64,000 nt of DNA from an uncultured Gammaproteobacteria bacterium (GTDB lineage Bacteria > Patescibacteriota > Patescibacteriia > Veblenbacterales > UBA10138), in contig CAYVOI010000001.1 in NCBI GenBank assembly GCA_964453605.1, forward strand, positions 21,182 through 85,181, written 5' to 3'. How positions within the stretch are numbered: the stretch's first letter is position 1; every line of letters begins with the position of its first letter. The translations under genes were made by a program, and so were the position numbers. Below are positions 6,902 to 50,830 of this stretch, piece after piece. A model generated the notes under the pieces. It made no database searches and was not told where the DNA came from. It was given only the letters and a program-made list of their open reading frames with translations.

Positions 6902-7168
6902 TTAAGTAACTTTAAATAAACCAGAAACAATTTTTTCTAGATCCTTTACCTTGGCCTCGTTACTTCCGCTACCACCAAAGCAACCTTCCGCTTCAGCCTC
7001 CAGCAAAACCGTGGCCAGCTTCTGTAAGGAGGCACGAGCCGCCACAATCTGCTGGAGCACTTCAGAGCAGTCGCGCTTAGCCTCTATCATACGGCCAATG
7101 CCCGCAACCTGCCCCTCGGTTCGTTTTACCTGGTCGCTAATAGCTTGTGGATCACAACGGTCTTTCAT
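6902..7168 (-). CDS. CsoR/RcnR/FrmR-family metal- or formaldehyde-sensing transcriptional repressor
   Basis: 88 aa all-helical protein with a TEGQVxGIxRMIE...C...L...EGC pattern. Cys residues sit at the positions of the family ligand triad. Confidence 0.6.
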   Translation of the reverse strand: MKDRCDPQAISDQVKRTEGQVAGIGRMIEAKRDCSEVLQQIVAARASLQKLATVLLEAEAEGCFGGSGSNEAKVKDLEKIVSGLFKVT

Positions 7169-7199
7169 ATATTTAGTACTAGATACTGGTAGGTAGTAT

Positions 7200-7230
7200 A
7201 GCTGATAGATTAAATTAAGTCAATATCAGG
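7200..7230 (-). promoter_or_regulatory. Sigma70-like promoter for the CsoR-like gene
   Basis: Minus strand reads TTGACT, 17 nt, TATACT, about 35 nt upstream of the ATG at 7168. Confidence 0.45.
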
Positions 7231-7321
7231 CTAAATTAGTATTTTGCGACACTTAGTAAATTTTATAATCTTGTTCCACATGGAACAAAAACATACTACA
7301 TGATTTAATTGTATAGCTCCC

Positions 7322-7597
7322 CTATTGCTCTAAAAACCTATTTCTCAGGACGTCTATTTCATCTGGGGTTAAACGGAAATCATGACAAACTCTTACAAAA
7401 AGGTCATGAAACCATTTATGATTTCTAGGTATTTTTTGTGACACCTCAAAATTAGTCACCAAGGCTATCTCCTCGCTAGAAAATGAGTAGTGCGGGTTGG
7501 TTATCATGTCAGCCAACTCTTCTTTATACTTCTGTAGAAGGCTATTAACAAAAACTTCATCACTTGTTCGCTCGTGATGGTTTTCTCTGTTTTCCAT
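7322..7597 (-). CDS. Hypothetical small protein (92 aa), AT-rich
   Basis: The ORF track extends this to 7651, but that extension overlaps tRNA-Ala. The internal ATG at 7595-7597 (MENRENHH...) is the plausible start. GC is well below the genome background. Confidence 0.45.
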   Translation of the reverse strand: MENRENHHERTSDEVFVNSLLQKYKEELADMITNPHYSFSSEEIALVTNFEVSQKIPRNHKWFHDLFVRVCHDFRLTPDEIDVLRNRFLEQ

Positions 7598-7611
7598 ATG
7601 TAGATAAAAAT

Positions 7612-7687
7612 TGGTGGACCCAAGGAGACTCGAACTCCTGGCCTCTTCCATGCCATGGAAGCGCTCTACCAGCTGAGCTATGGGCCC
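7612..7687 (-). tRNA. tRNA-Ala(GGC), CCA encoded
   Basis: Manual cloverleaf fold: GGGCCCATAGCTCAGCTGGTAGAGCGCTTCCATGGCATGGAAGAGGCCAGGAGTTCGAGTCTCCTTGGGTCCACCA. Carries the G3:U70 Ala identity pair; anticodon GGC. Confidence 0.9.
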
Positions 7688-7756
7688 TGAAGTATGGGCC
7701 TAACCCAACTTCAGGGCAAGCCCAAAACCACTAAAAATCTATTAATAAGCAGAAGG

Positions 7757-7786
7757 TATTATATCGGCCTGAATAGCCTACGTCAA
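7757..7786 (-). promoter_or_regulatory. Near-consensus sigma70 promoter driving tRNA-Ala(GGC)
   Basis: Minus strand reads TTGACG, 17 nt, TATAAT. The predicted TSS is about 60 nt upstream of the tRNA 5' end. Confidence 0.6.
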
Positions 7787-7797
7787 CGCCCTATATT

Positions 7798-8585
7798 TTA
7801 CCTTTGTTCCACATGGAACATTTCTCCCAAAGAGTCCTTAATTAGATAAAAAGGGAAAGCTATGGTTGCAACCAAAATTCTCAAAAACCGCCTTGGCTCA
7901 ACTAATAATCTCCAAACCCATTCCAAACCCATTTTCCTAAATACCACGGGAGCCCTTTTTCTCTTCCCAGCAAAGTAATCAAATGTACCACCAACCCCTA
8001 TACCTACTTTTACCGGAAGTTGCGGCAAGTAGTAGTTAAGCCAAAGCTCTTGTTTGGGGTGGCCAAAACCAACTAAAAGTATGTCGGGTTTTTTTAATAT
8101 GATGTCATTAATTAGTCTCTGATTCTCCTGGCTTGTAAGCGGAAACTGGTCTTTTTCAGAAAAAATAGGACCAGTATCAAATCCAGAAATGTTAATTTTT
8201 GCGTATTTTAAGGTAAAATATTGTGTCGCTTTTTGTAAATCAGTATTACCAATAAAGTACAGGGAATACTCCTTAGCCACTGATTCTTGGACTAAAAGAC
8301 TAACCAAATCCACGCCAGTAACCCTCCCTTTTACGATTGGGGTTTTTGATAGGTAAGAAGCTAGGATCACACCTGTACCGTCCGGAGCCACTAAACTCGC
8401 CCGCTCTAAAATGGCCCGGTACTGAGGGTGCTGGCGGGCGTAAACTAATATCTCCGGGTTTGCGGTAACTACCAATTGCTTTTGGGGTAGACGAAGTGCG
8501 GCCTGAATAAGGTCGGCGGCCCCCCGCAAACCAGGATCGGCTATGGTTACACCAAAAGCTTTGTACATAAGGCGAGGTCTCCAGT
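7798..8585 (-). CDS. WecB/TagA/CpsF-family glycosyltransferase (UDP-N-acetyl-D-mannosaminuronic acid / ManNAc transferase family)
   Basis: Family-typical blocks FIGNTD...LVGFGHPKQELW...GVGGTFDYFAG. The start is ambiguous: ATG at 8583-8585 (MLNW...) or 8559-8561 (MYKAF...). The longer track ORF to 8790 looks like an N-terminal over-extension. Confidence 0.75.
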
Positions 8586-8674
8586 TTAGCATTTTGGATC
8601 CCTTTTGTGCTTCAATACAAGCAATTTTGCGAGTTTTCTTGAATCTGAGCCTCAAAAGAAGATATAATTTCAAT

Positions 8675-9178
8675 ATGGCTACAAAAGATGAACTCGAACA
8701 AAAACCCCTATTCCGTTTTGCAAAAGTTCTTTTTTCCCTGTCAGCCTTTATTGTTGCCACCCTAACAGTGTTTGTCTGGTACGGCGTCAAATCAAAGGAC
8801 TATGATACCAGTCGGTCATATTTCGTCTGCAATTCGTTCACTACACAACATGGGCTGACTGACGACGAAAAAGAGACTCTCAAAGTCTCTCAACCGCCTG
8901 CGTTTAATGCTGGCTCAGCAGCCCAAACACGTATAAACCAGGTGTGCTACCAAGAATATAGCGGTGGAAAGGATGCTGCTACACAGGCCAACATTGATTC
9001 TTTTCGTGCATTTCAGAGTGGCCCAGATGGACGAGTTTATACAATTCAAGGGACAAAAACATCAGATGATTGGCACTGGGACGGGCTGCTGATTGCCCTT
9101 GCTGTTGAGTACCTTGTCTTTTGGTTCCTAAAGCAAGCCGGCTTATACATTGCTGGCGGTAGAGACGCGTTGAAATAA
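8675..9178 (+). CDS. Hypothetical protein with N- and C-terminal TM helices, AT-rich
   Basis: ATG at 8675 (MATKDELEQ...). The upstream part of the track ORF overlaps the tagA-like gene on the opposite strand. Composition is low-GC. Confidence 0.5.
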   Translation: MATKDELEQKPLFRFAKVLFSLSAFIVATLTVFVWYGVKSKDYDTSRSYFVCNSFTTQHGLTDDEKETLKVSQPPAFNAGSAAQTRINQVCYQEYSGGKDAATQANIDSFRAFQSGPDGRVYTIQGTKTSDDWHWDGLLIALAVEYLVFWFLKQAGLYIAGGRDALK

Positions 9179-9245
9179 GCACATTTTATCGCTTCTGCGA
9201 GTAGAGTGATGATTCCCCATTGAGCAGTGGGGTGCTTTGGCCCTG

Positions 9246-9319
9246 TGGTGGACCCAGGGAGAATCGAACTCCCGCCTGCGCAATGCGAATGCGCTGTAAT
9301 ACCACTTTACTATGGGCCC
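9246..9319 (-). tRNA. tRNA-Ala(CGC), CCA encoded
   Basis: GGGCCCATAGTAAAGTGGTATTACAGCGCATTCGCATTGCGCAGGCGGGAGTTCGATTCTCCCTGGGTCCACCA. G3:U70 pair; anticodon CGC. Confidence 0.85.
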
Positions 9320-9497
9320 ACCACAGAGCCAACCTTTAGGCTACCAACTCCGACGAGCCTGCTGTCGGAGCCCCGACTTAGGCGTCGGGGCTGAGCTACT
9401 GGCCCCTGAAGTATGGGCCTCGCCCAACTCCAGGGCGAGCCTTTACTAAACTAGCATGCTCTGGCTGTGCCATAAACTGGCCCGAAGGCCTAAGGCC

Positions 9498-9572
9498 TGG
9501 TGCCCCCGGCAGGAATCGAACCTACATCTATCCCTTAGGACGGGACTGTTCTATCCATTGAACTACAGGGGC
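9498..9572 (-). tRNA. tRNA-Arg(CCT), CCA encoded
   Basis: GCCCCTGTAGTTCAATGGATAGAACAGTCCCGTCCTAAGGGATAGATGTAGGTTCGATTCCTGCCGGGGGCACCA. Acceptor GCCCCTG pairs with CGGGGGC; anticodon loop is GTCCTAA. Confidence 0.85.
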
Positions 9573-9600
9573 CCCTTGTACCACCCGAGTAGCCTAGGGG

Positions 9601-9789
9601 CTACTGGGGTTTGGAGTCAAGCAGGCGGCTGGCAAACTGGCTGAACCTGCCACCATGACTCTCAAGGTAGCCAAGAGCGCCGAGCACTCCCGCGATTATG
9701 ATACCCAAAGCCAGGAGTGTTAGCATATCCTGCTTCAGGTAGGTGTTGCTGTCGTTGGACATAGGCGTTGACGTTAGCACATCTACCAT
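9601..9789 (-). CDS. Possible small membrane protein (62 aa)
   Basis: Single TM helix. The ORF abuts the tRNA-Arg 5' end. There is no other support. Confidence 0.3.
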   Translation of the reverse strand: MVDVLTSTPMSNDSNTYLKQDMLTLLALGIIIAGVLGALGYLESHGGRFSQFASRLLDSKPQ

Positions 9790-9850
9790 ACTACAATAGC
9801 AATGATTTTTCTACCCACCTTCTAACTTCACCACTAACCTACACAACCCT

Positions 9851-10261
9851 ATGTTCAAAGGCGATAGCCACAGCGAAACTGATACCCTTATTGGCCCTTC
9901 GGTAAAAGTGGAAGGTGATTTTTCAAGCCAGGGGAACATACACATTGAGGGCGCGCTAAAGGGCACCATGGAAACCGCCGCGAACCTGACGGTGGGTGAA
10001 CACGCCCACCTGGTGGCTGACGTTAAAGCCCAGAATGCCTACGTGGCAGGCTATGTTAAGGGGAACTTGAACGTGGGTGAACGGCTCGAGCTTGCGCCCA
10101 CGAGCCACATCGAGGGTGATGTATCGGCCAAAGTGCTGGTGGTAACTGAGGGTGCTCGGCTCGACGGTAAGTGTCAGATGACAGCTGCGGCAGTGGCAAC
10201 ACCAGCAGGTACTACTCGCACCACGAGTAAAAAAACGGCCACGGTAGCACAAGTGGGCTAG
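9851..10261 (+). CDS. Bactofilin (polymer-forming cytoskeletal protein, DUF583)
   Basis: Repetitive beta-helical segments IHIEGALKG...AYVAGYVKGNLNVGERLEL...IEGDV, as in CcmA/BacA. Confidence 0.8.
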   Translation: MFKGDSHSETDTLIGPSVKVEGDFSSQGNIHIEGALKGTMETAANLTVGEHAHLVADVKAQNAYVAGYVKGNLNVGERLELAPTSHIEGDVSAKVLVVTEGARLDGKCQMTAAAVATPAGTTRTTSKKTATVAQVG

Positions 10262-10282: not shown

Positions 10283-11056
10283 ATGCCCTACTTTTACCTT
10301 TACGATACCTACCTTGGGGACCGGTCATACGCCAGTCTCCTCATTAAGTTGGAAACAACGCTGACTGACCTGGGGCTCCAAGGGAAGATTGGCCGGTTAA
10401 CCTTGCTCAAGAGTGTCAGGGATTTGGTCACGGCAGCGATTCGCGACGGGGCTGATACAGTAGTAGCAGTAGGGAACGACACTACACTCTCACGGGTAGC
10501 TGAGGTGGTGGCTAAACACCCCAAAGTTAGCGTTGGGTTGATACCACTCGGAGCAGAGAGCCAAACCTGCGCCGAGCTCTTGGGTATACCCGTGGGGCTT
10601 TTGAGCTGCCACGTACTCTCAAGCCGGCTGGTAGAAACGGTAACCTTGGGGCAGGTTAATAACCAATACTTTCTCCAAGCCGTGGGTTGCAGCGGGCAGC
10701 CAGTCTTAGGCTGTGAGTATGGTGGCCGGGTCTACCGGGTAACGCTCGCTACGCCGCACCAGATTAAGGTTTGCAATCTTGACCGCGTACCAGAGCACCA
10801 CGGCCCAGGCAGCACAGGCCAGCTCGAGCATGCCCTAGCCACCGTGCTCGTACCCGCCAGTAAAAAGAACTGGTTTGGCTTTAGTGCTGCCAACAGTGCG
10901 GCTACCGTTATACCAACTGAGGTGGTGACTATAAGCTCACCCGATGATGAGCTGGCACTCACTGTAGATGGCTACCGTACCATAAAAACACCAGCCACGG
11001 TGCGGGTAGCTAAAGAGCGCCTCAAGCTCATTGTAGGCAAGAAACGCCTGTTCTAG
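10283..11056 (+). CDS. Diacylglycerol-kinase catalytic-domain-like lipid kinase (YegS/BmrU family), degenerate glycine motif
   Basis: VVAVGNDTTLSRV (in place of GGDGT) and GLIPLGAESQ, laid out as in the DAGK_cat domain. Confidence 0.55.
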   Translation: MPYFYLYDTYLGDRSYASLLIKLETTLTDLGLQGKIGRLTLLKSVRDLVTAAIRDGADTVVAVGNDTTLSRVAEVVAKHPKVSVGLIPLGAESQTCAELLGIPVGLLSCHVLSSRLVETVTLGQVNNQYFLQAVGCSGQPVLGCEYGGRVYRVTLATPHQIKVCNLDRVPEHHGPGSTGQLEHALATVLVPASKKNWFGFSAANSAATVIPTEVVTISSPDDELALTVDGYRTIKTPATVRVAKERLKLIVGKKRLF

Positions 11057-12058: not shown

Positions 12059-12313
12059 TCAGGTTACGGGATCAAGCCCACCCGACGACCAGGGGTGGCA
12101 GCGGGTCAGGCGCTTGGCCGCACGTACTATACCAAATAGCACCCCGTACCGCTCTAGGCTCTGGTAGGCGTACTCTGAGCAGGAAGGGTAAAAGTGGCAC
12201 CCCGCCCCAGGAAACAACGCCCTCCCCCAGCCGTGGTCGGGGGATATGGTCTTTTGGTAGCCACGTATAGCCAATAGAATTAAGGTTTTTATAAGCGTCG
12301 CACAATAGTTCAT
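12059..12313 (-). CDS. yidD: Membrane protein insertion efficiency factor YidD
   Basis: YQKTISP...CHFYPSCSEYA signature. Confidence 0.85.
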   Translation of the reverse strand: MNYCATLIKTLILLAIRGYQKTISPDHGWGRALFPGAGCHFYPSCSEYAYQSLERYGVLFGIVRAAKRLTRCHPWSSGGLDPVT

Positions 12314-12317
12314 AGAT

Positions 12318-12662
12318 CTAAGGCTTACGGCCTAACTGTTTTTTTATCGTAGTCTCTAGATCAGCTACCACCTGGTGGTAGGTTAAGTCGCGTATACCTG
12401 GAGCTACTATAAAAATGAGGTGGTAGCCGCGTGGTGGAAGGTTAGGTTTTAAGCTACGTAAGGCTGCCCACAACCACCGTCGGTAGTGATTACGCCTAGT
12501 GGCTTTGAGTGAAACTTTTTTGGAAACTACGACTCCAAAACGCGTGGCAGCAGGCTGAGCCACTACCACACAGCTAAAGCCGCGCGTTCGTAGGCGGCGG
12601 CCGTGGCGGTAGGTGGTAGCGTAGTCCTGAGCACTGGTTAACCGAAACTTACGCCTGAGCAT
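12318..12662 (-). CDS. rnpA: Ribonuclease P protein component
   Basis: Basic 114-aa protein with the RNR-like motif KATRRNHYRR, in the conserved position next to rpmH. Confidence 0.85.
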   Translation of the reverse strand: MLRRKFRLTSAQDYATTYRHGRRLRTRGFSCVVVAQPAATRFGVVVSKKVSLKATRRNHYRRWLWAALRSLKPNLPPRGYHLIFIVAPGIRDLTYHQVVADLETTIKKQLGRKP

Positions 12663-12999: not shown

Positions 13000-14349
13000 A
13001 TGACCAACGAAGAGCTGTGGAGCTCAACCTTGGGCGAGCTTGAGCTCCTAATAAGCAAAGCGAATTTTACGACCTGGTTCAAGAACACCAGCATTGTGTC
13101 GGTGAACGAGGGGCAGGTGGTGGTGGCAGTACCAAACGCCTTTACCAAGGCGTGGTTGGAAAAAAAGTACCACAGCTTCATCGTCAAGGCCCTACAGAAT
13201 ATAGCTGGCAGCGGCATCAAACACATTGACTACCGGGTGGAGTTGGGCCAGGCGGGCACACAAAAACAGGAGCTCGCTGCCCCGCCGGCCCCAGCCACAG
13301 CTGTGCGCGAGGTGGGGGCCAGCTTTGGGCTCAACCCGCGCTACACCCTTGACGCCTTTATTGTGGGCAAGAACAATGAGCTGGCCCGGGCAGCGGCCCT
13401 GGCGGTGGCCCAGAACCCCGGCGGAACCTACAATCCACTCTTCATCTACGGCGGGGTGGGCTTAGGTAAGACCCACCTCATGCAAGCTATTGGGCATGAC
13501 ATTGTGGGGCGCACCCCGGGCAAGCACGTGCTCTACGTGCCGTGTGAAAAGTTTACCACCGAGTTCATCCAGGCCATTGGTAGTGGAAAAATAGAGCGGT
13601 TCAAGTCCACCTATCGATCGGTTGATGTACTCCTGGTTGACGATATCCAGTTCCTGGCCGGCAAAGAAGGGACGCAGGAAGAGTTCTTCCACACCTTTAA
13701 CACCTTACACCAAGCCAACAAGCAAATTGTTTTAACTTCAGACAGGCCCCCCAAAGCTATTCAAACTCTGGAGAATAGGCTTATTTCTCGATTTGAGTGG
13801 GGCATGATAGCTGATATCGCAAGCCCAGATCTTGAAACCAGAACGGCGATTTTAGAAACCAAATGCCGCGAGCGTGGCTACCACCTGGAGCCTGATATCA
13901 TCAACTACCTCGCCACCAACATCCAGCACAACGTCCGCGAGCTCGAGGGGGCCCTCAATCGTATTGTCGCCTACCACCAGCTCAACAACCGTGCCCCCTC
14001 ACTGGAATCGGTTAAAGAGCTCTTACACGGGCTGCAGAGTGGTGGCGGGCACAATAAGAGCCTGACCAGTAAGAAGATACTAGCTACCATTGCCCAGTAC
14101 TACGACGTTGGTGCTGACGACCTGCTGGGGGTTAGCCGCAAGAAGCACCTGGTTGAGCCGCGGCAGGTGGCTATGTACCTGATGCGCGAAGAGCTTAAGG
14201 CCTCGTTCCCTACCATTGGCCAAGAAATGGGTGGCCGGGACCACACCACCGCTATGCACTCGTGCCTCAAGGTGGCCAAAGAGCTTGAGACAAATGAGAA
14301 GGTTCGACAAGATATTCACAACTTACGACAGCAGTTGAGCGCACTCTAA
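13000..14349 (+). CDS. dnaA: Chromosomal replication initiator DnaA
   Basis: Walker A GGVGLGKTHL, the AAA+ core, and the C-terminal DNA-binding helix-turn-helix. Confidence 0.95.
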   Translation: MTNEELWSSTLGELELLISKANFTTWFKNTSIVSVNEGQVVVAVPNAFTKAWLEKKYHSFIVKALQNIAGSGIKHIDYRVELGQAGTQKQELAAPPAPATAVREVGASFGLNPRYTLDAFIVGKNNELARAAALAVAQNPGGTYNPLFIYGGVGLGKTHLMQAIGHDIVGRTPGKHVLYVPCEKFTTEFIQAIGSGKIERFKSTYRSVDVLLVDDIQFLAGKEGTQEEFFHTFNTLHQANKQIVLTSDRPPKAIQTLENRLISRFEWGMIADIASPDLETRTAILETKCRERGYHLEPDIINYLATNIQHNVRELEGALNRIVAYHQLNNRAPSLESVKELLHGLQSGGGHNKSLTSKKILATIAQYYDVGADDLLGVSRKKHLVEPRQVAMYLMREELKASFPTIGQEMGGRDHTTAMHSCLKVAKELETNEKVRQDIHNLRQQLSAL

Positions 14350-14466
14350 GTTTTCCACCGCGTGTCTCGGCCCCTCCCCACAAGTTGCCCCCAACCCCCT
14401 ACTATCATCTAAGCCCAAAAAGCTGGCCCCTAACCATTTATCCACCTTTCCCCACCACCTACTACT

Positions 14467-15576
14467 ATGAAATTCTCATGTACCCAAGAAAATTTTAATA
14501 CAGGGTTAAGCGCTGTGGCTCACGTAGCCAGTCGAAATGCTAACCTACCAATTTTAAGTAATATCTTACTCCGTACCAGCAAAACCGGACTAGAGCTAGT
14601 GGCGACCAACCTGGAGGTGGCGGTAGTAACCGTGGTTCGGGGCAAGGTAGATGGAGAAGGTGCCATAACTGTGAACAGTCGACTCTTAAGCGACGCGGTA
14701 GCGCTACTTCCCAGAGAGCGCATTGACCTTGAGCTCACCGGCACCGACCTTGCCCTACGCTGCGGCAAGCACCGCACCACCATACGGGGCCTGGCGGCGG
14801 ATGACTTTCCTGTTATACCTGAGGTGGTGGGCGCGGGCGGCATAACCTGTAGCGCGGCTGACCTTGAGGCGGCGCTTGGTAGTGTGGTGTTTGCAGTTAA
14901 CCCCGACGAGGGTAGGCCCGAGATAGCCGGCGTCTACTTTGAGCACAGTAGCCGAGGGTTGGTGGTGGCGGGGACCGACAGCTACCGCTTAGCTGAGTAC
15001 GTTATCTCTTCGGTAAAAGGTAAAACCACCCCAGATAAATTTATTTTACCCCTCAGGGCCGCCCAAGAAGTACTTCGCGTGGTAGCGGGGGTGAACGAAG
15101 AAGAAGTTCAGGTGCTTACTAGTGATAGCCAGGCGCTGTGGCAGCTGGGAGAAACAAGGATTATCTCCCGCCTGGTAGCTGGTCAGTACCCTGACTACCA
15201 GCAAATTATCCCCAAGGATTTTGCCACCCGGGCAGTAGCCGCGCGGGACGAGCTCTTGAGGGCGGTGCGCTCAGCCGCCCTGTTTGCTCGCTCTGGCATT
15301 AACGATGTGCGCTTAAGCTTAACCCCCGAGCAAAAAACCATTACCGTATCGTCAGCCAATAGCCAGTTGGGAGAGAATACCATCGAGCTCGCCACGCTAA
15401 GTAGTGAGGGTGAAGCGGCTGAGGTGGTGTTTAATTACCGCTACCTACTGGAGGGGTTGCAGGCTACCCCACAGAGCGAAGTTGTGCTCGAGGTGGTGGG
15501 GCCTAAGAATCCGGGGGTGCTTAAACCACAGGGCGCCTCGAGCTACCTCTACATCATCATGCCGATTCGGCAGTAA
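14467..15576 (+). CDS. dnaN: DNA polymerase III beta sliding clamp
   Basis: Three-domain clamp architecture, directly downstream of dnaA. Confidence 0.9.
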   Translation: MKFSCTQENFNTGLSAVAHVASRNANLPILSNILLRTSKTGLELVATNLEVAVVTVVRGKVDGEGAITVNSRLLSDAVALLPRERIDLELTGTDLALRCGKHRTTIRGLAADDFPVIPEVVGAGGITCSAADLEAALGSVVFAVNPDEGRPEIAGVYFEHSSRGLVVAGTDSYRLAEYVISSVKGKTTPDKFILPLRAAQEVLRVVAGVNEEEVQVLTSDSQALWQLGETRIISRLVAGQYPDYQQIIPKDFATRAVAARDELLRAVRSAALFARSGINDVRLSLTPEQKTITVSSANSQLGENTIELATLSSEGEAAEVVFNYRYLLEGLQATPQSEVVLEVVGPKNPGVLKPQGASSYLYIIMPIRQ

Positions 15577-40971: not shown

Positions 40972-41225
40972 GATGCTGTCATTTTAGATCTTATTATTTA
41001 CGGAAAGACTCACCTAAGCAGGTGGGGCTTGTCCGATAAAAAGTTTGCCTGGCGGAGAGGGAGGGATTCGGCTTTACCTCTCGTCCGCCCGTCGGCGGAC
41101 TCGGGCTAGCCACCGCCTCGTGGTGCCACCTGGTGGTGGCACATCACTCCGGCGTTCTCACCCCACCGCACCACAAGCAGTTGTGGTGCTCCTCTCCGAA
41201 TGCTGTCCACGTGGTGGACCCCATT

Positions 41226-41312
41226 CGGAGAGGGAGGGATTCGAACCCTCGATAACCTTTCGGCTATACAGGTTTTCGAGACCTGCGCCTTCAACCACTC
41301 GGCCACCTCTCC
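41226..41312 (-). tRNA. tRNA-Ser(CGA), long variable arm, no encoded CCA
   Basis: GGAGAGGTGGCCGAGTGGTTGAAGGCGCAGGTCTCGAAAACCTGTATAGCCGAAAGGTTATCGAGGGTTCGAATCCCTCCCTCTCCG. Confidence 0.85.
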
Positions 41313-41368
41313 GTGAGCTCTACATCGTTTGTAGAGCGTTCACAGTATACGAACGGGGACTAGCTGTG

Positions 41369-43112: not shown

Positions 43113-43167
43113 TAACCGTAAGTATAGCAAACCCCCGCCTTTTGAGGCGGAGGCAGCGTGCGTTCAG

Positions 43168-43238
43168 AGCGGGTAGCGGGAGTCGAACCCGCCTCATCAG
43201 CTTGGAAAGCTGAGGTAATACCGCTATACCATACCCGC
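43168..43238 (-). tRNA. tRNA-Gly(TCC), no encoded CCA
   Basis: GCGGGTATGGTATAGCGGTATTACCTCAGCTTTCCAAGCTGATGAGGCGGGTTCGACTCCCGCTACCCGCT. Confidence 0.8.
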
Positions 43239-43240
43239 TC

Positions 43241-43450
43241 TCAGGGCACGCGCTTGCCAGAGGTGGTGCCGTGCAGAGCGTTTTCTTTTTTCGCCAGGTC
43301 TACTCTCAGCGCTTGCCAGAACCCGCCCTGGCTCGGCGGCGTATTAGTAGAGAGCACTTGGTTGTAGAGCCAGAGCCCGTAGATGGTAGCCATGGCCAGT
43401 ACGGTGGCGAGGAGTACAAGTACGGTGTCACGGCCGCGGTGTTCCAGCAT
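43241..43450 (-). CDS. Possible small membrane protein (69 aa)
   Basis: One TM helix, tightly packed between the secreted-protein gene and tRNA-Gly. Weak support. Confidence 0.3.
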   Translation of the reverse strand: MLEHRGRDTVLVLLATVLAMATIYGLWLYNQVLSTNTPPSQGGFWQALRVDLAKKENALHGTTSGKRVP

Positions 43451-43851: not shown

Positions 43852-43947
43852 ACGAACGTTCGTTAGGAGTGACTATGGTGCCGAGGGCCACCCCGAAGTG
43901 GAGCTAAGCTCACTTCGGGGCAGGGAATCGGACACTACTCTACAGTG

Positions 43948-44019
43948 TGCCTGGGGTCAGAATCGAACTGACGACGCCAGCCTCTTCAGGGCTGCGCTCT
44001 ACCACTGAGCTACCCAGGC
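43948..44019 (-). tRNA. tRNA-Phe(GAA), no encoded CCA
   Basis: GCCTGGGTAGCTCAGTGGTAGAGCGCAGCCCTGAAGAGGCTGGCGTCGTCAGTTCGATTCTGACCCCAGGCA. Confidence 0.85.
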
Positions 44020-44113
44020 ACACTGTAGAGTATGATTGTTGTGAAATGTCTACTACTGCGCTAACGCCGTGCTCCTTGCCCCGTAGGGAACGAGCCTAAG
44101 CGAGTTCTCCTTC

Positions 44114-44137
44114 GGGGTACCACTGAGCTACCTCGGC
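44114..44137 (-). other. Truncated tRNA 5' fragment (acceptor plus D-arm only) upstream of tRNA-Phe
   Basis: Minus strand reads GCCGAGGTAGCTCAGTGGTA, then diverges into an unrelated hairpin. Compare the tRNA-Phe 5' end GCCTGGGTAGCTCAGTGGTAGAGC. Confidence 0.5.
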
Positions 44138-44148
44138 CTGTGGAAGTA

Positions 44149-44490
44149 TTAGCGATAAATAACTGAAATGATAAAGGCAATAACAATGAGCGGGAAGGCG
44201 ATGAGTGTACCACGTTCTGGCAGCTCGCGGAAGAACACGTAGTTGAGTATTGGTTCCGCTACGAGGATCGAGGCCATCGAAGCAATGCTGACAATCCAAA
44301 TTTTTTCAAAGCTCCGGTAGCCTAGGCCATACCCCACGAGCAGTAGTACGCCCGATACCAGGAATACACCGAGTAGGGCAGCGAGGTCGCGTGCCGCAAT
44401 GCCGTGCTTACCTTGGCGCGCCTGCATGAGCTCGGCGCTAATAGCTACTGCTTCGCCCACAAAAATGCTAAATACAGCAATGAGTTTCAT
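44149..44490 (-). CDS. Small polytopic membrane protein (113 aa, 4 TM)
   Basis: Start ATG at 44488-44490 (MKLIAVFS). The track's upstream extension overlaps tRNA-Pro. Confidence 0.5.
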   Translation of the reverse strand: MKLIAVFSIFVGEAVAISAELMQARQGKHGIAARDLAALLGVFLVSGVLLLVGYGLGYRSFEKIWIVSIASMASILVAEPILNYVFFRELPERGTLIAFPLIVIAFIISVIYR

Positions 44491-44592
44491 GGTTCGTATT
44501 GTTAATCGTCGGGGTACTGGGGTTTGTCGCCCCTTCGGGAGATCACCCGTAGGGTGAAACCCAGGACCTGCCCGTAGAATTTTGGTCGGGGA

Positions 44593-44668
44593 TGCGAGAC
44601 TCGAACTCGCGACCTCCTGCTCCCAAAGCAGGCGCGCTACCAACTGCGCTAATCCCCGGTAGGGTTTA
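44593..44668 (-). tRNA. tRNA-Pro(TGG), CCA encoded
   Basis: CGGGGATTAGCGCAGTTGGTAGCGCGCCTGCTTTGGGAGCAGGAGGTCGCGAGTTCGAGTCTCGCATCCCCGACCA. Confidence 0.85.
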
Positions 44669-44917
44669 CGGACCGCGCTAGCCAGCTGCGCGCTATACCC
44701 GGGTGGTGTGCCCCTCGACTACGCTCGGGGCATTCGCCTCGTCCATGGTTTACCATGAGCGAGCGGAGCGAGTCGAATGGTGGGTCGGGTGGGACTCTGT
44801 CCTGGGCAGCGCCGAATGTTGCGCTTGCTCACATTCGGCGGATGCTCCCCCGCCCTTCCCGAAGGACGAGGTCGCTCCTGCCCTTCTCGTCCCCCTACCT
44901 ATCACCTTGGTGGGTCG

Positions 44918-44993
44918 GGTGGGACTCGAACCCACGACCAATTGCTTAAGAGGCAACTGCTCTACCAGCTGAGCTACCGACCCATGAAGTATG
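44918..44993 (-). tRNA. tRNA-Lys(CTT), CCA encoded
   Basis: GGGTCGGTAGCTCAGCTGGTAGAGCAGTTGCCTCTTAAGCAATTGGTCGTGGGTTCGAGTCCCACCCGACCCACCA. Confidence 0.85.
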
Positions 44994-45075
44994 AACTCCG
45001 CTCAACTTCAGGGCAAGCCCTGAAGTTTGTGGCTGTGCCATGAACTCAAGCGAGCGTGTAGTTCATGGTGCCCCC

Positions 45076-45150
45076 GGAGGGATTCGAACCCCCAATAGCT
45101 GGTCCGAAGCCAGCCGTGATATCCATTTCACCACGAGGGCCGAAGCTTAC
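45076..45150 (-). tRNA. tRNA-Arg(TCG), CCA encoded
   Basis: GCCCTCGTGGTGAAATGGATATCACGGCTGGCTTCGGACCAGCTATTGGGGGTTCGAATCCCTCCGGGGGCACCA. Confidence 0.8.
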
Positions 45151-45240
45151 CGTAAGCTTGAGGGCTCACAAATTTAGCCCCCTCACCATAGCATAAACCC
45201 GCTCTCGGTTCAAGCCTACCGTGAGGTATGAGCAAAACCC

Positions 45241-46293
45241 TCAGTTTAAGGTTTCGGCTGACGTAACGTGGGAGAGTGCCGCCTCGCGGGTAATGGCACC
45301 TTCTTGGAGCAAGCGCTTGATGTGTTGGTCGATAGTAATCATGCCCTCTTCAGCGCTCGTTTGAATGACAGATTTTATCTGCGCGTGCTTGTTCTCACGG
45401 ATTAAGTTAGCCACCGCCGGGTTGTTGATGAGCAGCTCGCGGGCAGCCACCCGGCCACTGCCATCGGCCCTGGGCAGCAGTCGCTGTGAGATGACGGCTT
45501 TGAGCGAGAACGACAGCTGCAGCCGGACTTGGGTTTGCTGGTAGGGGGGGAAGACGTCGATAATGCGGTCAATGGTTTCCACGGCGTTGTTGGTGTGGAG
45601 GGTGGCGAGCACCAGGTGCCCAGTCTCCGCCAAGGTGAGCGTGGTGCTGATGGTGTCGAGGTCGCGCATTTCGCCAACCATAACTACGTCCGGGTCTTGC
45701 CGCAAGGTGTGCTTTAAACCCTCGGCAAATGAAGTTATGTCGGTCCCGAGTTGGCGCTGTTTGATGATGCTCTTGCCCCCAGGGAAAATAAATTCAATCG
45801 GGTCTTCCAGGGTAATAATGTTCACTGCCCGCTGCTGGTTGATGAGGTTGATCATGGCGGCAAGCGAGGTGGATTTACCAGCACCGGTGGGGCCGGTGAC
45901 CAGCACCAAGCCGTAGTCGAGCTGCGTCAGGCGGTAGACCACCTGGGGCATGGTGATGTCCTCTAGAGAGGGAATGGTGGTAGGAATAACGCGCGCTACC
46001 AGACCAATATTGTCTTTTTCGAAGTGCAGGTTAATACGGAACCGCGTACCGTCTTTTATTTGGTACGAGAGGTCAAGGTCCCGGCGCTCTAAGAACTGGG
46101 CGCGTTGCCCAGGCGCTAGAATCCCCAGCGCCAGGTCCTGGAGTTTTTTAGGAGTGAGCTCGGGGTAGCCCAAGGCCCTGAGGTCGCCGTGGAGCCGTAT
46201 GGTCGGAGGTTTGCCAACGGCCAGGTGTAAATCAGAGGCGCCTTGCTGGCTAGCTTCGTTGAACAGTACTTCGAGTGATGCTAATTCAGGCAT
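45241..46293 (-). CDS. pilT: Type IV pilus retraction ATPase PilT (twitching motility protein)
   Basis: Walker A GPTGAGKST, and the PilT-type N-terminal and His-box regions. Confidence 0.85.
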   Translation of the reverse strand: MPELASLEVLFNEASQQGASDLHLAVGKPPTIRLHGDLRALGYPELTPKKLQDLALGILAPGQRAQFLERRDLDLSYQIKDGTRFRINLHFEKDNIGLVARVIPTTIPSLEDITMPQVVYRLTQLDYGLVLVTGPTGAGKSTSLAAMINLINQQRAVNIITLEDPIEFIFPGGKSIIKQRQLGTDITSFAEGLKHTLRQDPDVVMVGEMRDLDTISTTLTLAETGHLVLATLHTNNAVETIDRIIDVFPPYQQTQVRLQLSFSLKAVISQRLLPRADGSGRVAARELLINNPAVANLIRENKHAQIKSVIQTSAEEGMITIDQHIKRLLQEGAITREAALSHVTSAETLN

Positions 46294-49716: not shown

Positions 49717-49810
49717 AGGTTTAGGTTTTAGAGGTTTTGTAGACGTAGCTTAGTATAGCAGCTCGGGCAAAATTTTTGAACTCTGGCGAACTATGGGCAG
49801 TTCACACCCT

Positions 49811-49882
49811 TGCCCCCGAGAGGAATCGAACCTCTATAACCGGCTTAGAAGTCCGGTGTTCTATCCATTGAACTACAGGGGC
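49811..49882 (-). tRNA. tRNA-Arg(TCT), no encoded CCA
   Basis: GCCCCTGTAGTTCAATGGATAGAACACCGGACTTCTAAGCCGGTTATAGAGGTTCGATTCCTCTCGGGGGCA. Confidence 0.85.
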
Positions 49883-49909
49883 ACGGGTGTGAACTGAGGC
49901 ACCACTAGG

Positions 49910-50830
49910 CTAGGTTGTTTTAGCTTCCTGGTCAACGCCTGCTGACGCTTCCGGACGTAGGTAACGGTAGAGCTTTAACGTGCTCTGGCTTTGGTGCCCA
50001 AGCGTTTGGCTGATGGTAGCAGCTGGTACTCCTTGTTTGAGAAGCCTGGCTGCAAAGGTGTGGCGGAGTGTGCCTGGTGTGAGGCGGCTGGTGATGTTAG
50101 CTGCTTTTCGGTAGTGCTCGAGTATGCGCTGCACGCTGCGCGGGGTGAGTGGTTGGTTGGCGCTACCACGCGCCCGGTCGTGCCGTACAAACAGGGCAGG
50201 GCTACTGTCGTCGCGGGCACTGAGGTACTGTTGCAGGTCGGCCAGACACTCTTTAGGTAGTGTAACAAGTTCGGGTCTTAAGCCTCGTGCTCCTAGGCGC
50301 AGTTCACCTGCGGTACTCAACTGGTCACGCGTGAGCGCGGCAGCCTCTGCCGTTTTCAGTCCAGTAGTAAGAAGGAGTGAGAGTAGGGCGCGGTCTCGGA
50401 GTTGCACCAACTGGGGCTCGCTGCTCTGAAGCGGTGCCTGGACTAGGCGTTCTACCTCTTGGGCTGAGAGTACCGTTACCGTTTCTCTGGTCAGGTGCTT
50501 AAGGTGTACCATGCCGGGCTCGAGTACCTGTTCACCTTGGGCTCTTAGGTACTTCAAGAACGACCGCAGGGCCGAGAGGTGGTAGTTCTGGGCCGCACCA
50601 GAGAGTGCTTTACCGTTCTGTTGGTTGGTTCGGGCGAGCCATCTTGTAAAAGCGCGAACTCGTTCAGTGGTGAGTTGCTCCAAGTTTGGTTCACTAAGGC
50701 TCGTTGCTTGCTTCAGCCAAATTACAAATCGCGCCAGGCTACGGCGGTAGCTTTTGAGCGTGGCTTGTCGGCGCTCTGGTTCCCGGAGCGACCCAAGGTA
50801 GGCTTCGGTGAGTTCGGTTAGATTTGGCAT
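49910..50830 (-). CDS. Tyrosine site-specific recombinase (XerC/XerD/phage-integrase family)
   Basis: Core-binding plus catalytic domain, with R..(H)..LRHTFA..LGHQSQSTLKLY (R-H-R-Y residues). It lies immediately beside tRNA-Arg(TCT). Confidence 0.8.
   Translation of the reverse strand: MPNLTELTEAYLGSLREPERRQATLKSYRRSLARFVIWLKQATSLSEPNLEQLTTERVRAFTRWLARTNQQNGKALSGAAQNYHLSALRSFLKYLRAQGEQVLEPGMVHLKHLTRETVTVLSAQEVERLVQAPLQSSEPQLVQLRDRALLSLLLTTGLKTAEAAALTRDQLSTAGELRLGARGLRPELVTLPKECLADLQQYLSARDDSSPALFVRHDRARGSANQPLTPRSVQRILEHYRKAANITSRLTPGTLRHTFAARLLKQGVPAATISQTLGHQSQSTLKLYRYLRPEASAGVDQEAKTT

Follow-up and report, generated by a model that had tools for sequence, protein, structure and literature searches.

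Transfer RNA (tRNA) genes are classic landing sites for mobile DNA, and tyrosine integrases that target them classically leave their mark as a direct repeat of the tRNA part between the T-loop and the 3' end; tRNA mimicry, for its part, is recurrent in RNA biology. A 64,000-nucleotide stretch of DNA from an uncultured member of the Patescibacteria (contig CAYVOI010000001.1, positions 21,182 to 85,181; hereafter, the window) raises the question of what a repeated tRNA tail stands for: within its tRNA array, the last 20 nt of tRNA-Lys(CTT) come back a short distance downstream, behind an insert that holds a hairpin. We show here that this insert and the distal repeat form one member of a family of structured modules devoid of any open reading frame (ORF), which lie behind tRNA genes, and in the same orientation, in Paceibacteria-like Patescibacteria. 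The family is apparently undescribed: our literature search found no description of such modules, the nearest report being that of group I introns in the anticodon loops of Patescibacteria tRNAs (PMC13011429). On balance, we lean slightly towards seeing in it an unrecognised class of tRNA-linked elements of the Patescibacteria, either small RNAs that mimic tRNA tails or a mobile element templated by its target, which would accompany about one in six to ten tRNA genes in our sample.

The window has 11 tRNA genes, all of them on the minus strand (ARAGORN, with which Rfam agrees). The 20-mer that makes up the repeat, GAGTCCCACCCGACCCACCA on that strand, occurs exactly twice in the 64 kb, without a third match even when up to 3 mismatches are allowed, and none of 100 shuffles gave the two-match outcome. 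A previous, sequence-only reading of the window had reported an exact repeat of the tRNA-Lys 3' end, a spacing of 130 nt, an insert of 110 bp and, within it, a 10-bp perfect hairpin. All of these stand, the spacing being counted from start to start, the insert spanning 44798-44907 and the hairpin being CGCCGAATGT...ACATTCGGCG; only the position of the distal copy has to be corrected, as it had been placed at 44787-44806, 9 nt too far to the right (Table 1). Folded as RNA, the insert and the distal copy together reach -68.2 kcal/mol (z = -5.5 against shuffles); folded as DNA, they give z = -4.8 for the sense strand and z = -4.1 for the antisense strand. The tRNA-Lys gene itself is identical in sequence to that of L197 (loci from other assemblies are designated here by L numbers), and the gene order PilT, tRNA-Arg(TCG), tRNA-Lys(CTT) is kept in many Patescibacteria relatives. 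The nearest relatives of the window's PilT reach 61-65% identity among species representatives and up to 93% in metagenomes, and belong to metagenome-assembled genomes of the Patescibacteria/Parcubacteria type. The repeat is not an assembly artefact, since orthologues of like architecture are present in independently assembled sequences of ENA, NCBI and JGI (L200, L201, L183).

Table 1. Coordinates of the features of the window discussed in the text (R1, covariance model; A2, nine-member alignment).
Feature	Coordinates	Strand	Basis or remark
tRNA-Lys(CTT), CCA encoded	44908-44983	-	ARAGORN; Rfam tRNA model, 75.4 bits
Repeat copy 1: last 20 nt of tRNA-Lys, T-loop G57 to CCA	44908-44927	-	exact repeat
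Repeat copy 2: tRNA-Lys positions 57-76 with CCA	44778-44797	-	exact repeat
Whole module: inverted arm, three-way-junction core and direct copy of the tRNA tail	44778-44907	-	model R1; fold z = -5.5
IR-L GGTGATAGGTAGGGGGACGAGAA, degenerate inverted copy of tRNA-Lys 54-76	44884-44906	-	sequence comparison
Core part of IR-L, GGGGGACGAGAA	44884-44895	-	helix P0, formed with the first nucleotides of the distal copy
P1, 5' strand GGGCAG	44878-44883	-	invariant in 9 seed sequences; partner 44804-44809
Junction GAGCGAC (consensus nAGCGAC)	44871-44877	-	invariant columns, alignment A2
Hairpin hp1	44848-44870	-	sequence and length variable among members, pairing kept
Junction GAGCATC (consensus GGGAGCG/GGGAGCA)	44841-44847	-	GGAGC columns invariant
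Hairpin hp2, 10 bp perfect, 11-nt loop GAGCAAGCGCA	44810-44840	-	6 of 10 pairs changed on both sides across the family
P1, 3' strand CTGCCC	44804-44809	-	pairs with 44878-44883
Junction AGGACA (consensus AGGRC + 1-2 nt)	44798-44803	-	alignment A2 and fold
Trailer TTCGACTCGCTCCGCTCGCTCATGGTAAACCATGG after the distal copy	44743-44777	-	by eye like the L203 trailer; alignment unscored
Second, divergent module behind tRNA-Ser(CGA) (41225-41313): 154-nt structured insert, then CGAATCCCTCCCTCTCCGCCA	41050-41224 (copy 41050-41070)	-	fold z = -5.5
Pseudo 5' copy of tRNA-Phe: positions 1-20 of an L197/L200-type gene and a 39-nt GC-rich D-loop hairpin	44079-44137	-	
5' remnant of the ancestral tRNA-Pro, GGGTATAGCGCGCAGCTGGCTAGCGCG	44674-44700	-	
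3' remnant, CCCAGTACCCCGACGA, of the ancestral tRNA-Pro; lies past the replacement tRNA-Pro gene and a degenerate module	44506-44521	-	
Pseudo 5' copy of tRNA-Ala with two D-loop hairpins, upstream of tRNA-Ala(CGC)	9348-9406	-	

Read along the tRNA strand, the parts of a module come in a fixed order: tRNA, spacer, inverted arm (IR-L), core, and tRNA positions 56/57 to the 3' end. The spacer measures 1-80 nt and is little conserved between orthologues. The core has the consensus GAAGGGCAG-nAGCGAC-hairpin-GGGAGCG-hairpin-CTGCCC-AGGAC, that is, in detail, GGGCAG, nAGCGAC, hp1, GGGAGCG or GGGAGCA, hp2, CTGCCC, and AGGRC followed by 1-2 nt. In the orthologues of L200 and L183, hp1 has other sequences and the same pairing, and the loop of hp2 follows the pattern GAnC...A in most members; the AGGACA junction of the window has a predicted alternative pairing with the T-stem 3' strand of the copy, which would give a T-arm-like hairpin. 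IR-L reproduces the tRNA from T54 on as its reverse complement, and its last three nucleotides are invariably GAA, complementary to the universal TTC; in the window, too, the terminal GAA is the complement of the TTC in the T-loop. IR-L reads, for example, AGTCGAA behind tRNA-Val, AATCGAA behind tRNA-Asp, AATTGAA behind tRNA-Met and ACTTGAA behind tRNA-Leu, and its match to the reverse complement of tRNA positions 54 to 63 covers 7-10 contiguous nt in most members (19/19 in the tRNA-Lys module of L018, hereafter L018_Lys). The window has GGGGGAC-GA-GAA where a perfect arm would have GTGGGAC-TC-GAA, and since this deviation from TC to GA is common to the window, L200 and L183, we consider the three modules as one lineage. 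The direct copy agrees with its tRNA at 20 of 20 positions in the window, L183, L200 and L017, is fully identical by inspection in L176 and L194, and is decayed in L185, L189 and L206; most copies keep the CCA. Modules measure about 105-130 nt without their spacers, and inserts about 110-190 bp; neither an ORF nor an integrase lies between the repeats in the window or in the related copies examined, which hold only spacers of 25-80 nt and the core.

How widespread is this design? When the loci examined were scanned for 18-nt ends of each tRNA, several relatives proved to have extra 3'-end copies on the same strand, at distances of 60-300 nt downstream, for tRNA-Arg, Lys, Val and Ser; 5'-end copies were seen upstream of tRNA-Arg, Lys, Leu, Ala and Phe. 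A 3'-end copy lies at most 450 nt away in 18 of the 105 tRNAs of the Patescibacteria loci examined, a sample that was partly selected for the pattern and whose unselected part gives about one in eight to ten tRNAs; control loci from outside the candidate phyla radiation (CPR) hold too few tRNAs to control this count. The insert of the window has GAAGGGCAGnAGCGAC ... GCTGCCC in common with the tandem pair that follows tRNA-Val in L017, and a metagenome scan with this two-part pattern returned 25 stretches, 10 of them with the module architecture (duplicates included, as L196 is L017, and several others are repeated) and the others being chance matches within ORFs. Nine of the 10 sit directly behind a tRNA gene, namely tRNA-Met (L176), Asp (L194), Leu (L182 and L185/L192), Lys (L183), Glu (L189) and Val (L196 = L017); the contig of the tenth (L178) begins 39 nt upstream of the core, and its tRNA falls off the contig. 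The covariance model R1, built on the nine-member alignment A2, matches the window module at 44778-44898 with 107.5 bits (E = 5e-28), the tRNA-Lys module of L200 with 96 bits, and those behind tRNA-Arg in L206/L207 and L005 with 61 and 52 bits, respectively. The shared core is thus found in independent Patescibacteria assemblies behind tRNA-Lys, Val (two in tandem), Met, Asp, Leu, Glu and Arg, and all strong R1 matches (at least 52 bits) whose upstream flank is on the contig lie just 3' of a co-oriented tRNA. R1 found nothing at E <= 0.01 in 1.09 Mb of loci from other phyla and from viruses, though most of the viral loci hold the 15-mer GAAGGGCAGNAGCGAC; Rfam 15 returned nothing on the module even at E <= 10, and its matches at gathering score are tRNAs only.

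More divergent relatives keep the outline, with IR-L...GAA, a GGG-helix-CCC, (A/C)GG... and the copy, around different interiors. A second subfamily lies behind tRNA-Pro in L200, L203, L183 and L204 and behind tRNA-Lys in L204 and L018; no covariance model was built for it, as its six sequences align poorly (54% column identity). The window itself holds such a divergent module behind tRNA-Ser, of 175 nt with its copy, which has a predicted acceptor-like closing helix and lies outside the R1 matches.

The alignment also tells which parts of the module are kept. Across A2, the junctions are invariant and the helices variable. The structure P0/P1/hp1/hp2 has 87% of its cells paired, against 38-44% with slid partners; 10 pairs are changed on both sides, six of them in hp2, and none of 500 shuffles matched the observed percentage of pairing or the covariation score. 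Among the window, L200 and L183, the orthologous modules are 70-75% identical and the pilT DNA 69-79%, as compared with 31-51% for the Arg-Lys spacer and the trailer, where the shuffled level is 48%. The distal copy follows the tRNA-Lys of its own lineage at 20 of 20 positions, though the two tRNA types differ at three of these 20 (tails CCCAC-CCGACCC and CCCGG-ACGACCC), and IR-L of L183 is altered in step (CCGGGAC). In the species of L206, the module is fixed among 10 strains apart from a single-nucleotide polymorphism, with no polymorphism of presence or absence, so the family does not move fast. Such persistence in place of structured orthologues, compensatory changes included, across lineages whose PilT proteins are 73-87% identical calls for purifying selection.

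The history of the site can be read from the relatives of the window, ordered here by the identity of their PilT to that of the window: L197 (93%), L200 (87%), L203 (81%), L204 (75%), L206 (74%) and L183 (73%). In L197, the closest, tRNA-Arg, Lys, Pro and Phe follow one another with spacers of 31, 48 and 18 nt in 400 bp free of fragments, against 1194 bp for the same four tRNAs in the window. The tRNA-Lys site is occupied by subfamily 1 in the window, L200 and L183 and by subfamily 2 in L204 and L018, and it is empty in L197, L203, L206 and L208; L206 has a subfamily-1 module behind tRNA-Arg. The modules behind tRNA-Lys and tRNA-Pro in L204 (L204_Lys and L204_Pro) are 72% identical, L204_Pro and its orthologue L203_Pro 74%. 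Given these site states and the likeness of the two L204 modules, the family must have been gained, lost and copied between tRNA genes. The tRNA-Ser gene of L197 encodes its CCA, and behind it come a hairpin and a T-rich stretch, which we read as a terminator; in the window, AAT stands after a tRNA-Ser gene without CCA, and the CCA is found on the distal copy instead, a pattern also seen at tRNA-Leu of L182. Behind the distal Lys copy, the window, L200 and L183 have TTCGACTCGCTCC..CATGG.AAACCA, by eye (and unscored) like the trailer hairpin of tRNA-Lys in L203. Because CCA is kept there and, by eye, an L203-like trailer follows, it seems that the distal copy represents the 3' end which the tRNA originally had in the chromosome, in which case the module would have arisen by duplicative insertion at the T-loop/3' end, regenerating the tRNA. 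The present tRNA tail appears to have come with the insertion or, equivalently, the unit to have been inserted right after the tRNA end, and, as far as can be judged by eye, L203 (empty) and L183 (filled) look like a pair bounded by the repeat. Within one metagenome, spacer and core of L178 and L194 are 98.5% identical, as compared with 84% for the neighbouring gene. The same two loci (L178 133-2358, L194 229-398) also diverge right after the module, at a 2.2-kb segment with a 662-aa ORF that resembles, by eye, a phosphoenolpyruvate-utilising enzyme, and the tail copy of L178 is split by a 32-nt hairpin.

What, then, does the module do? An RNA and a DNA reading come into question, which are compatible with each other, as the family could spread as DNA and be kept for its RNA. 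We tentatively put first an action at the RNA level, the module being a structured RNA, co-transcribed with the tRNA, that mimics the tRNA tail. In the window, it would be transcribed together with tRNA-Lys, its transcript would fold into P0/P1/hp1/hp2 and be matured by the activities that mature tRNA ends, and the product would be a stable small RNA whose three-way-junction scaffold shows the single-stranded acceptor 3' strand and the NCCA of the neighbouring tRNA. Such an RNA would mimic that tRNA end, as a decoy, a competitor or a spare tail, towards a factor that recognises it, and the family would have spread between tRNA genes by duplication, through whatever mechanism. Purifying selection on RNA would explain the kept junctions, the compensated helices and the copy that tracks its tRNA. 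We also count for this reading the fixed co-orientation with the tRNA, the retention of CCA and the conservation of the junctions and of the hp2 loop. A scan of 43900-45300 found no promoter-like or terminator-like site, and we infer co-transcription from the lack of any such site between tRNA-Lys and the module; the subfamily-1 copies likewise have no terminator in between. By inspection, nAGCGAC...GGGAGCR seems to resemble a D-arm and AGGRC could pair with the T-stem 3' strand, and for L018_Lys and the tRNA-Ser module of the window, an acceptor-like closure with a 3' (N)CCA overhang is predicted.

Several points weigh against a tail-mimicking RNA. Expression and processing of the module RNA are presumed, and its interacting factor is hypothetical. 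The helix pairs comprise 280 Watson-Crick, 10 G-U and 15 A-C pairs, so that the comparison of G-U with A-C counts as a test of strand asymmetry (10 versus 15) bears on helices that are almost entirely Watson-Crick; as sense and antisense also fold equally well, the folded species is not pinned to the sense RNA. Between the tRNA and some divergent modules (two in L018, and degenerate copies of L011 and L176) stand a hairpin and, after it, a T-rich stretch, terminator-like by eye, with no space left for a promoter. The young copy L018_Lys has a perfect 19-nt inverted arm with GAA, facing a direct copy that has no matching TTC; an arm that includes an unpairable GAA looks templated by DNA rather than selected for pairing in RNA. 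The occurrence of tandem and of degenerate copies, and of more than one subfamily at the same site, is reminiscent of mobile DNA. Finally, with a closure of 5-7 bp and an unpaired acceptor strand, the canonical members would be poor mimics of a folded tRNA.

Ranked a close second, and possible if rather doubtful in our eyes, is that the module is a non-autonomous piece of mobile DNA. The P0 stem, made of IR-L and the direct copy, would be a folded single-stranded copy of the target duplex (tRNA positions ~54-72), and a recombinase or HUH nuclease encoded elsewhere would exchange one strand at the T-loop, at 56/57, as at an attC or CTXphi attP hairpin. Replication would then fix the product, that is, tRNA(1-56) with element-borne 57-76, spacer, IR-L, core and chromosomal 57-76; the core hairpins would be the scaffold recognised by the protein, and a circle junction would run ...CTGCCCAGGACA joined via one repeat copy to the spacer. 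Single-strand exchange yields exactly the observed order of parts, and the perfect arm of L018_Lys with its complement of TTC, the nearly all-Watson-Crick helices and the equal folding of both strands are what one would look for in DNA. The tandem copies of L017 and the existence of degenerate copies, the varied occupancy of the tRNA-Lys site, the apparently repeat-bounded difference between L183 and L203 (by eye), the orthologue-level closeness of L204_Lys and L204_Pro, the excess identity of spacer and core between L178 and L194, and the small GC-rich palindromes also inserted in tRNA-like pseudo-copies of these genomes all point the same way. Against a DNA module, no candidate enzyme adjoins any of the more than 12 modules, and neither an excised form nor a carrier, viral or plasmid, turned up in our scans of viral contigs. 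The window ORFs, when compared with Pfam (20 of them) and NCBIfam, gave housekeeping proteins, unknowns and one generic Xer-like recombinase, and no partner enzyme. This Xer-like tyrosine recombinase (49810-50830, directly beside tRNA-Arg(TCT) and conserved in L001) is the only recombinase near the array and lies 5 kb away from the module; it scores 57.7 bits with the integron-integrase model, whose cut-off is 265, and is probably the housekeeping Xer. Furthermore, P0 has only 5-7 bp in canonical members, too short for a recombinase half-site, and retargeting to a new tRNA requires two arms to change. The orthologues stay structured over the same PilT distances with lineage-specific features, which needs purifying selection in place, and the 10 strains of the L206 species show no polymorphism of presence or absence.

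We hold it unlikely that the module is the guide RNA of a TnpB/Cas12-like protein, with the ~100-nt core as scaffold, the last 17-20 nt as guide, the T-loop TTC 5' of the matching DNA as target-adjacent or protospacer-adjacent motif (TAM/PAM) and the 3' end of the cognate tRNA gene as target. TnpB omega-RNAs and type V CRISPR RNAs (crRNAs) have 3' guides of 16-20 nt and T-rich 5' TAM/PAMs, and CPR bacteria host type V systems. The geometry of the module agrees with this, as its scaffold is followed by a target-identical 3' segment of 17-20 nt that starts right after TTC in the tRNA; however, no TnpB, IscB or Cas gene is among the 20 window ORFs scanned with Pfam, none is evident beside the other modules examined, and no omega-RNA or HEARO-type match came from Rfam. 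The first 5-7 nt of the guide, its seed, are paired with IR-L, and the intact tRNA gene next door carries both TAM and target, so that an active nuclease would target its own genome.

Still less probable is the explanation that the repeat first calls to mind, an attL/attR scar left by a phage, plasmid or island that an integrase had inserted into tRNA-Lys and that was later mostly deleted, and for the insert this classical explanation is essentially excluded. It has on its side the extent of the direct repeat, from the T-loop to the tRNA 3' end, the other partial tRNA copies of relatives that run from the anticodon loop to the 3' end (L007, L203 Ser, L208 Pro), and a viral contig (L210) in which an integrase abuts a 45-nt tRNA-Lys(UUU)-like attP containing the 20-mer. 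Yet a deletion remnant would be arbitrary DNA, whereas the insert is a conserved, covarying module shared by many genomes and by at least 8 tRNA species, always short and never with ORF remnants; the sequence-only reading, which had seen in it the leftover of an integration and excision, is not borne out here. Its suggestion to look for matching att sites in phages led no further: the core was not found in viral contigs, and the lone viral match to the 20-mer, in L210, is a different attP, which would yield a repeat of at least 34 nt and comes without the core. The two-part core pattern has 0 matches in IMG/VR. A viral scan with the 15-mer gave 90 stretches, none with a matching CTGCCC in the right context, which we read as chance; only three near-identical, unrelated sequences passed the filter. 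L210 (IMGVR_UViG_3300026097_001242) is of interest in itself, as its 355-aa ORF (6949-8066), a tyrosine integrase by eye, makes a conventional integrase/att pair.

That there is no biology at all, the repeat being due to chance, local slippage duplication or a metagenome assembly artefact, is scarcely credible: the sole other recorded contig of the same organism (Logan, L001) stops within tRNA-Lys and leaves the repeat uncheckable there, and exact-protein look-ups of the two small genes beside the array found none on record, but the shuffles, the independent assemblies, the covariation and the gene-level conservation all speak against it.

Two further candidates were tried and rejected. A transfer-messenger RNA (tmRNA)-like reading, with GGAUUCGA-GGG at the 5' side and GGAC before the T region, found no tmRNA model match, tag ORF or complete T-arm; self-cleaving ribozymes (hammerhead, twister, pistol, hatchet and hepatitis delta virus) had no Rfam match, and their junctions do not fit.

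The array also holds orphan 5' fragments of tRNA genes, which the sequence-only reading had pointed out upstream of tRNA-Phe and tRNA-Ala(CGC). They are real, and are pseudo-copies or remnants of replaced tRNA genes. The Phe fragment GCCGAGGTAGCTCAGTGGTA (44118-44137), upstream of the window tRNA-Phe and identical to that gene at 18 of 20 positions, has the same sequence as the 5' terminus of tRNA-Phe where that gene is intact, in L197 and L200 (GCCGAGG...CCTCGGCACCA); the working tRNA-Phe of the window, GCCTGGG...CCCAGGC without CCA, is of the type found in L203, L204, L206 and L208. Remnants of a tRNA-Pro of the type that is intact in L197, L200, L203 and L183 surround a different, working tRNA-Pro. 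Given these matches to intact genes, we take the Phe and Pro fragments for remnants or pseudo-copies of earlier genes. The Ala fragment GGGGCCAGTAGCTCAG(C) lies at 9390-9406. Complete tRNA-Lys, Phe, Pro, Ala and Ser genes adjoin the fragments, which are therefore not halves of split or intron-containing tRNAs, an option that had been raised with them. The pseudo-copies have a common design, with positions 1 to ~20, a GC-rich D-loop hairpin, a few tRNA nucleotides and then unrelated DNA, the truncation falling near the anticodon stem; it is seen for Phe and Ala in the window and in L012, L013, L014, L023, L183 and L204, and L208 is also among the pseudo-copy loci. In the species of L206, two of 10 strains (L214 and L219, as opposed to L211-L218, all with identical PilT) carry a 34-nt insertion, GGTAGCTC|TTTAATACACGATTGTTTAGTGCCTG|GGTAGCTC, which makes a 13-nt tRNA-Phe 5' fragment and by which the gene gains a GCCTGGG 5' end with two mismatches to the 3' strand; the process that makes fragments is thus ongoing. 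With the compact array of L197, the Phe and Pro remnants and this insertion among strains, the earlier description of the array as a hotspot holds, in the sense of insertion and replacement. A 'chimeric' tRNA-Pro copy of L204 was considered as evidence of T-stem recombination and dropped, as it rests on one nucleotide.

Other partial tRNA copies accompany these fragments in the relatives. In L014, the working tRNA-Leu is separated from a tRNA-Leu 5' pseudo-copy by an ORF at 13052-13338 whose translation looks by eye like a GIY-YIG nuclease, which suggests tRNA gene replacement driven by a homing endonuclease. A palindrome, CCTGCC(n)GGCAGG, recurs in tRNA-like pseudo-copies, in the D-loop or just after the CCC of the T-stem (L012, L014, the end of the L183 locus, L200 at ~7860-7880, L203 and L204), and looks like a tiny insertion element. 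Between tRNA-Arg and tRNA-Lys, L200 (7252-7429) and L183 (6315-6389) hold decayed pieces of a second tRNA-Arg, GGATATCACGG and CTATTGGGGG, with GGTTCGATTCCCTCCGGGGGCACC as well in L200. Partial copies of a third class begin in the anticodon loop or the D-stem and extend to the 3' end (L203 at 10700-11000, nested in tRNA-Ser; L007 at 9537-9617 and 12284-12355; L208 behind tRNA-Pro), which is the pattern expected of integrase sites of the anticodon-loop type.

Some observations concern other tRNA genes of the window. The flanks of tRNA-Phe (43947-44019) have a perfect 13-bp leader/trailer complementarity (43936-43948 and 44020-44033) that extends the acceptor stem to 20 bp, and the flanks ...CAGTGT|tRNA|ACACTG... 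are also present in L204, L206 and L208; those of tRNA-Gly (43156-43175 and 43232-43251) form a similar pair, 85% complementary. Either pair may represent a processing helix, or else the termini of a tRNA cassette. Behind tRNA-Arg(TCG), at 45030-45065, a trailer hairpin pairs the encoded CCA with a downstream TGG (ACCA-TGAACT...AGTTCA-TGG); a CCA-TGG trailer hairpin is also found behind tRNA-Arg and tRNA-Lys of L203 and is conserved between relatives. tRNA-Arg(CCT) (9498-9572) and tRNA-Arg(TCT) (49810-49883) have identical first 18 nt, GCCCCTGTAGTTCAATGG. As for the chromosome, dnaA and dnaN (13000-15576; ~8000-10000) and the minimum of the cumulative GC skew place the replication origin within the window, and transcription of the tRNA array at 41-50 kb opposes the inferred direction of the fork.

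If the module acts as RNA, it would be a new mimic of tRNA ends in organisms with minimal genomes, where each element retained is informative, and each copy would point to a factor that reads the acceptor end of one particular tRNA. If it is mobile DNA, it would represent a new and very small insertion mechanism, with target recognition residing in the arms of the element itself. In both cases, a partial tRNA copy in a CPR genome should not be taken automatically for a prophage scar, and tRNA annotation and att predictors are bound to misjudge such loci.

How does the module compare with known systems? It shares with tyrosine-integrase elements at tRNA 3' ends the direct repeat from T-loop to end, the regenerated tRNA, the original end displaced downstream and the possible tandem occupancy of one site; unlike them, it has no integrase or any other gene, measures ~110-190 bp, carries an extra inverted copy of its target and is conserved, at orthologous sites, at the level of a housekeeping gene. 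Casposons, too, choose the 3' ends of tRNA genes and duplicate a long target (14-15 bp), but the module has no Cas1 or polymerase and no family-specific terminal inverted repeats, and is ~100-fold smaller.

In the outline of its predicted fold, the module parallels attC and the CTXphi attP(+), with an outer stem (P0), an unpaired bubble (GAA/AGGRCnn), a conserved inner stem (P1) and variable terminal hairpins (hp1/hp2); their counterparts in attC would be the R box, the unpaired central spacer, the L box and the variable terminal structure, although the boxes are not those of the integron. As in attC, exchange of one strand at the bubble-proximal end of the outer stem would give the junctions of the module exactly. 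Unlike in attC, the outer stem copies the target instead of being a conserved R box, a GTTRRRY/RYYYAAC core is lacking, and the exchange would fall at 56/57 and not at G|TT; no IntI gene, attI site or cassette array is present with the module.

TnpB omega-RNAs and type V crRNAs have in common with the module a scaffold followed by a target-identical 3' segment and the TTC 5' of the target, and the guide sequences of IS608, like IR-L, are an internal complement of the target at the 5' foot of a hairpin. Unlike TnpB and IS200/IS605 elements, including those of the palindrome-associated transposable element (PATE) type, the module has no tnpA or tnpB, a 'guide' that is partly paired and an intact target next door; IS200/IS605 insertions, besides, make no target repeat. 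Miniature inverted-repeat transposable elements (MITEs), repetitive extragenic palindromes and the bacterial interspersed mosaic elements that they form (REP/BIME), and Rickettsia palindromic elements are, like the module, small, ORF-less, rich in hairpins, multi-copy and present or absent between relatives. MITEs have family-specific terminal inverted repeats and a short target duplication, in contrast to the target-derived arms, conserved interior and fixed orientation of the module, strictly behind tRNAs; constant ends of the IS200/IS605 or MITE type are not seen, as both arms of the module change with the tRNA and its interior is conserved.

The tRNA-like domain of tmRNA, YrlA, mascRNA and the C4 RNA of P1/P7 resemble the module by their 3' NCCA, by an acceptor-like helix (in some members) and by a D-arm-like motif, and a dependence on tRNA-processing enzymes is plausible for the module too, which sits inside tRNA operons. 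Unlike these RNAs, it has no Rfam match or complete T-arm, its acceptor strand is unpaired in canonical members, and its tail is that of whichever tRNA is its neighbour. A folded conserved core, direct and inverted copies of the target tail, the lack of genes and a gene-like conservation make up a combination that belongs, among all these systems, to the module only.

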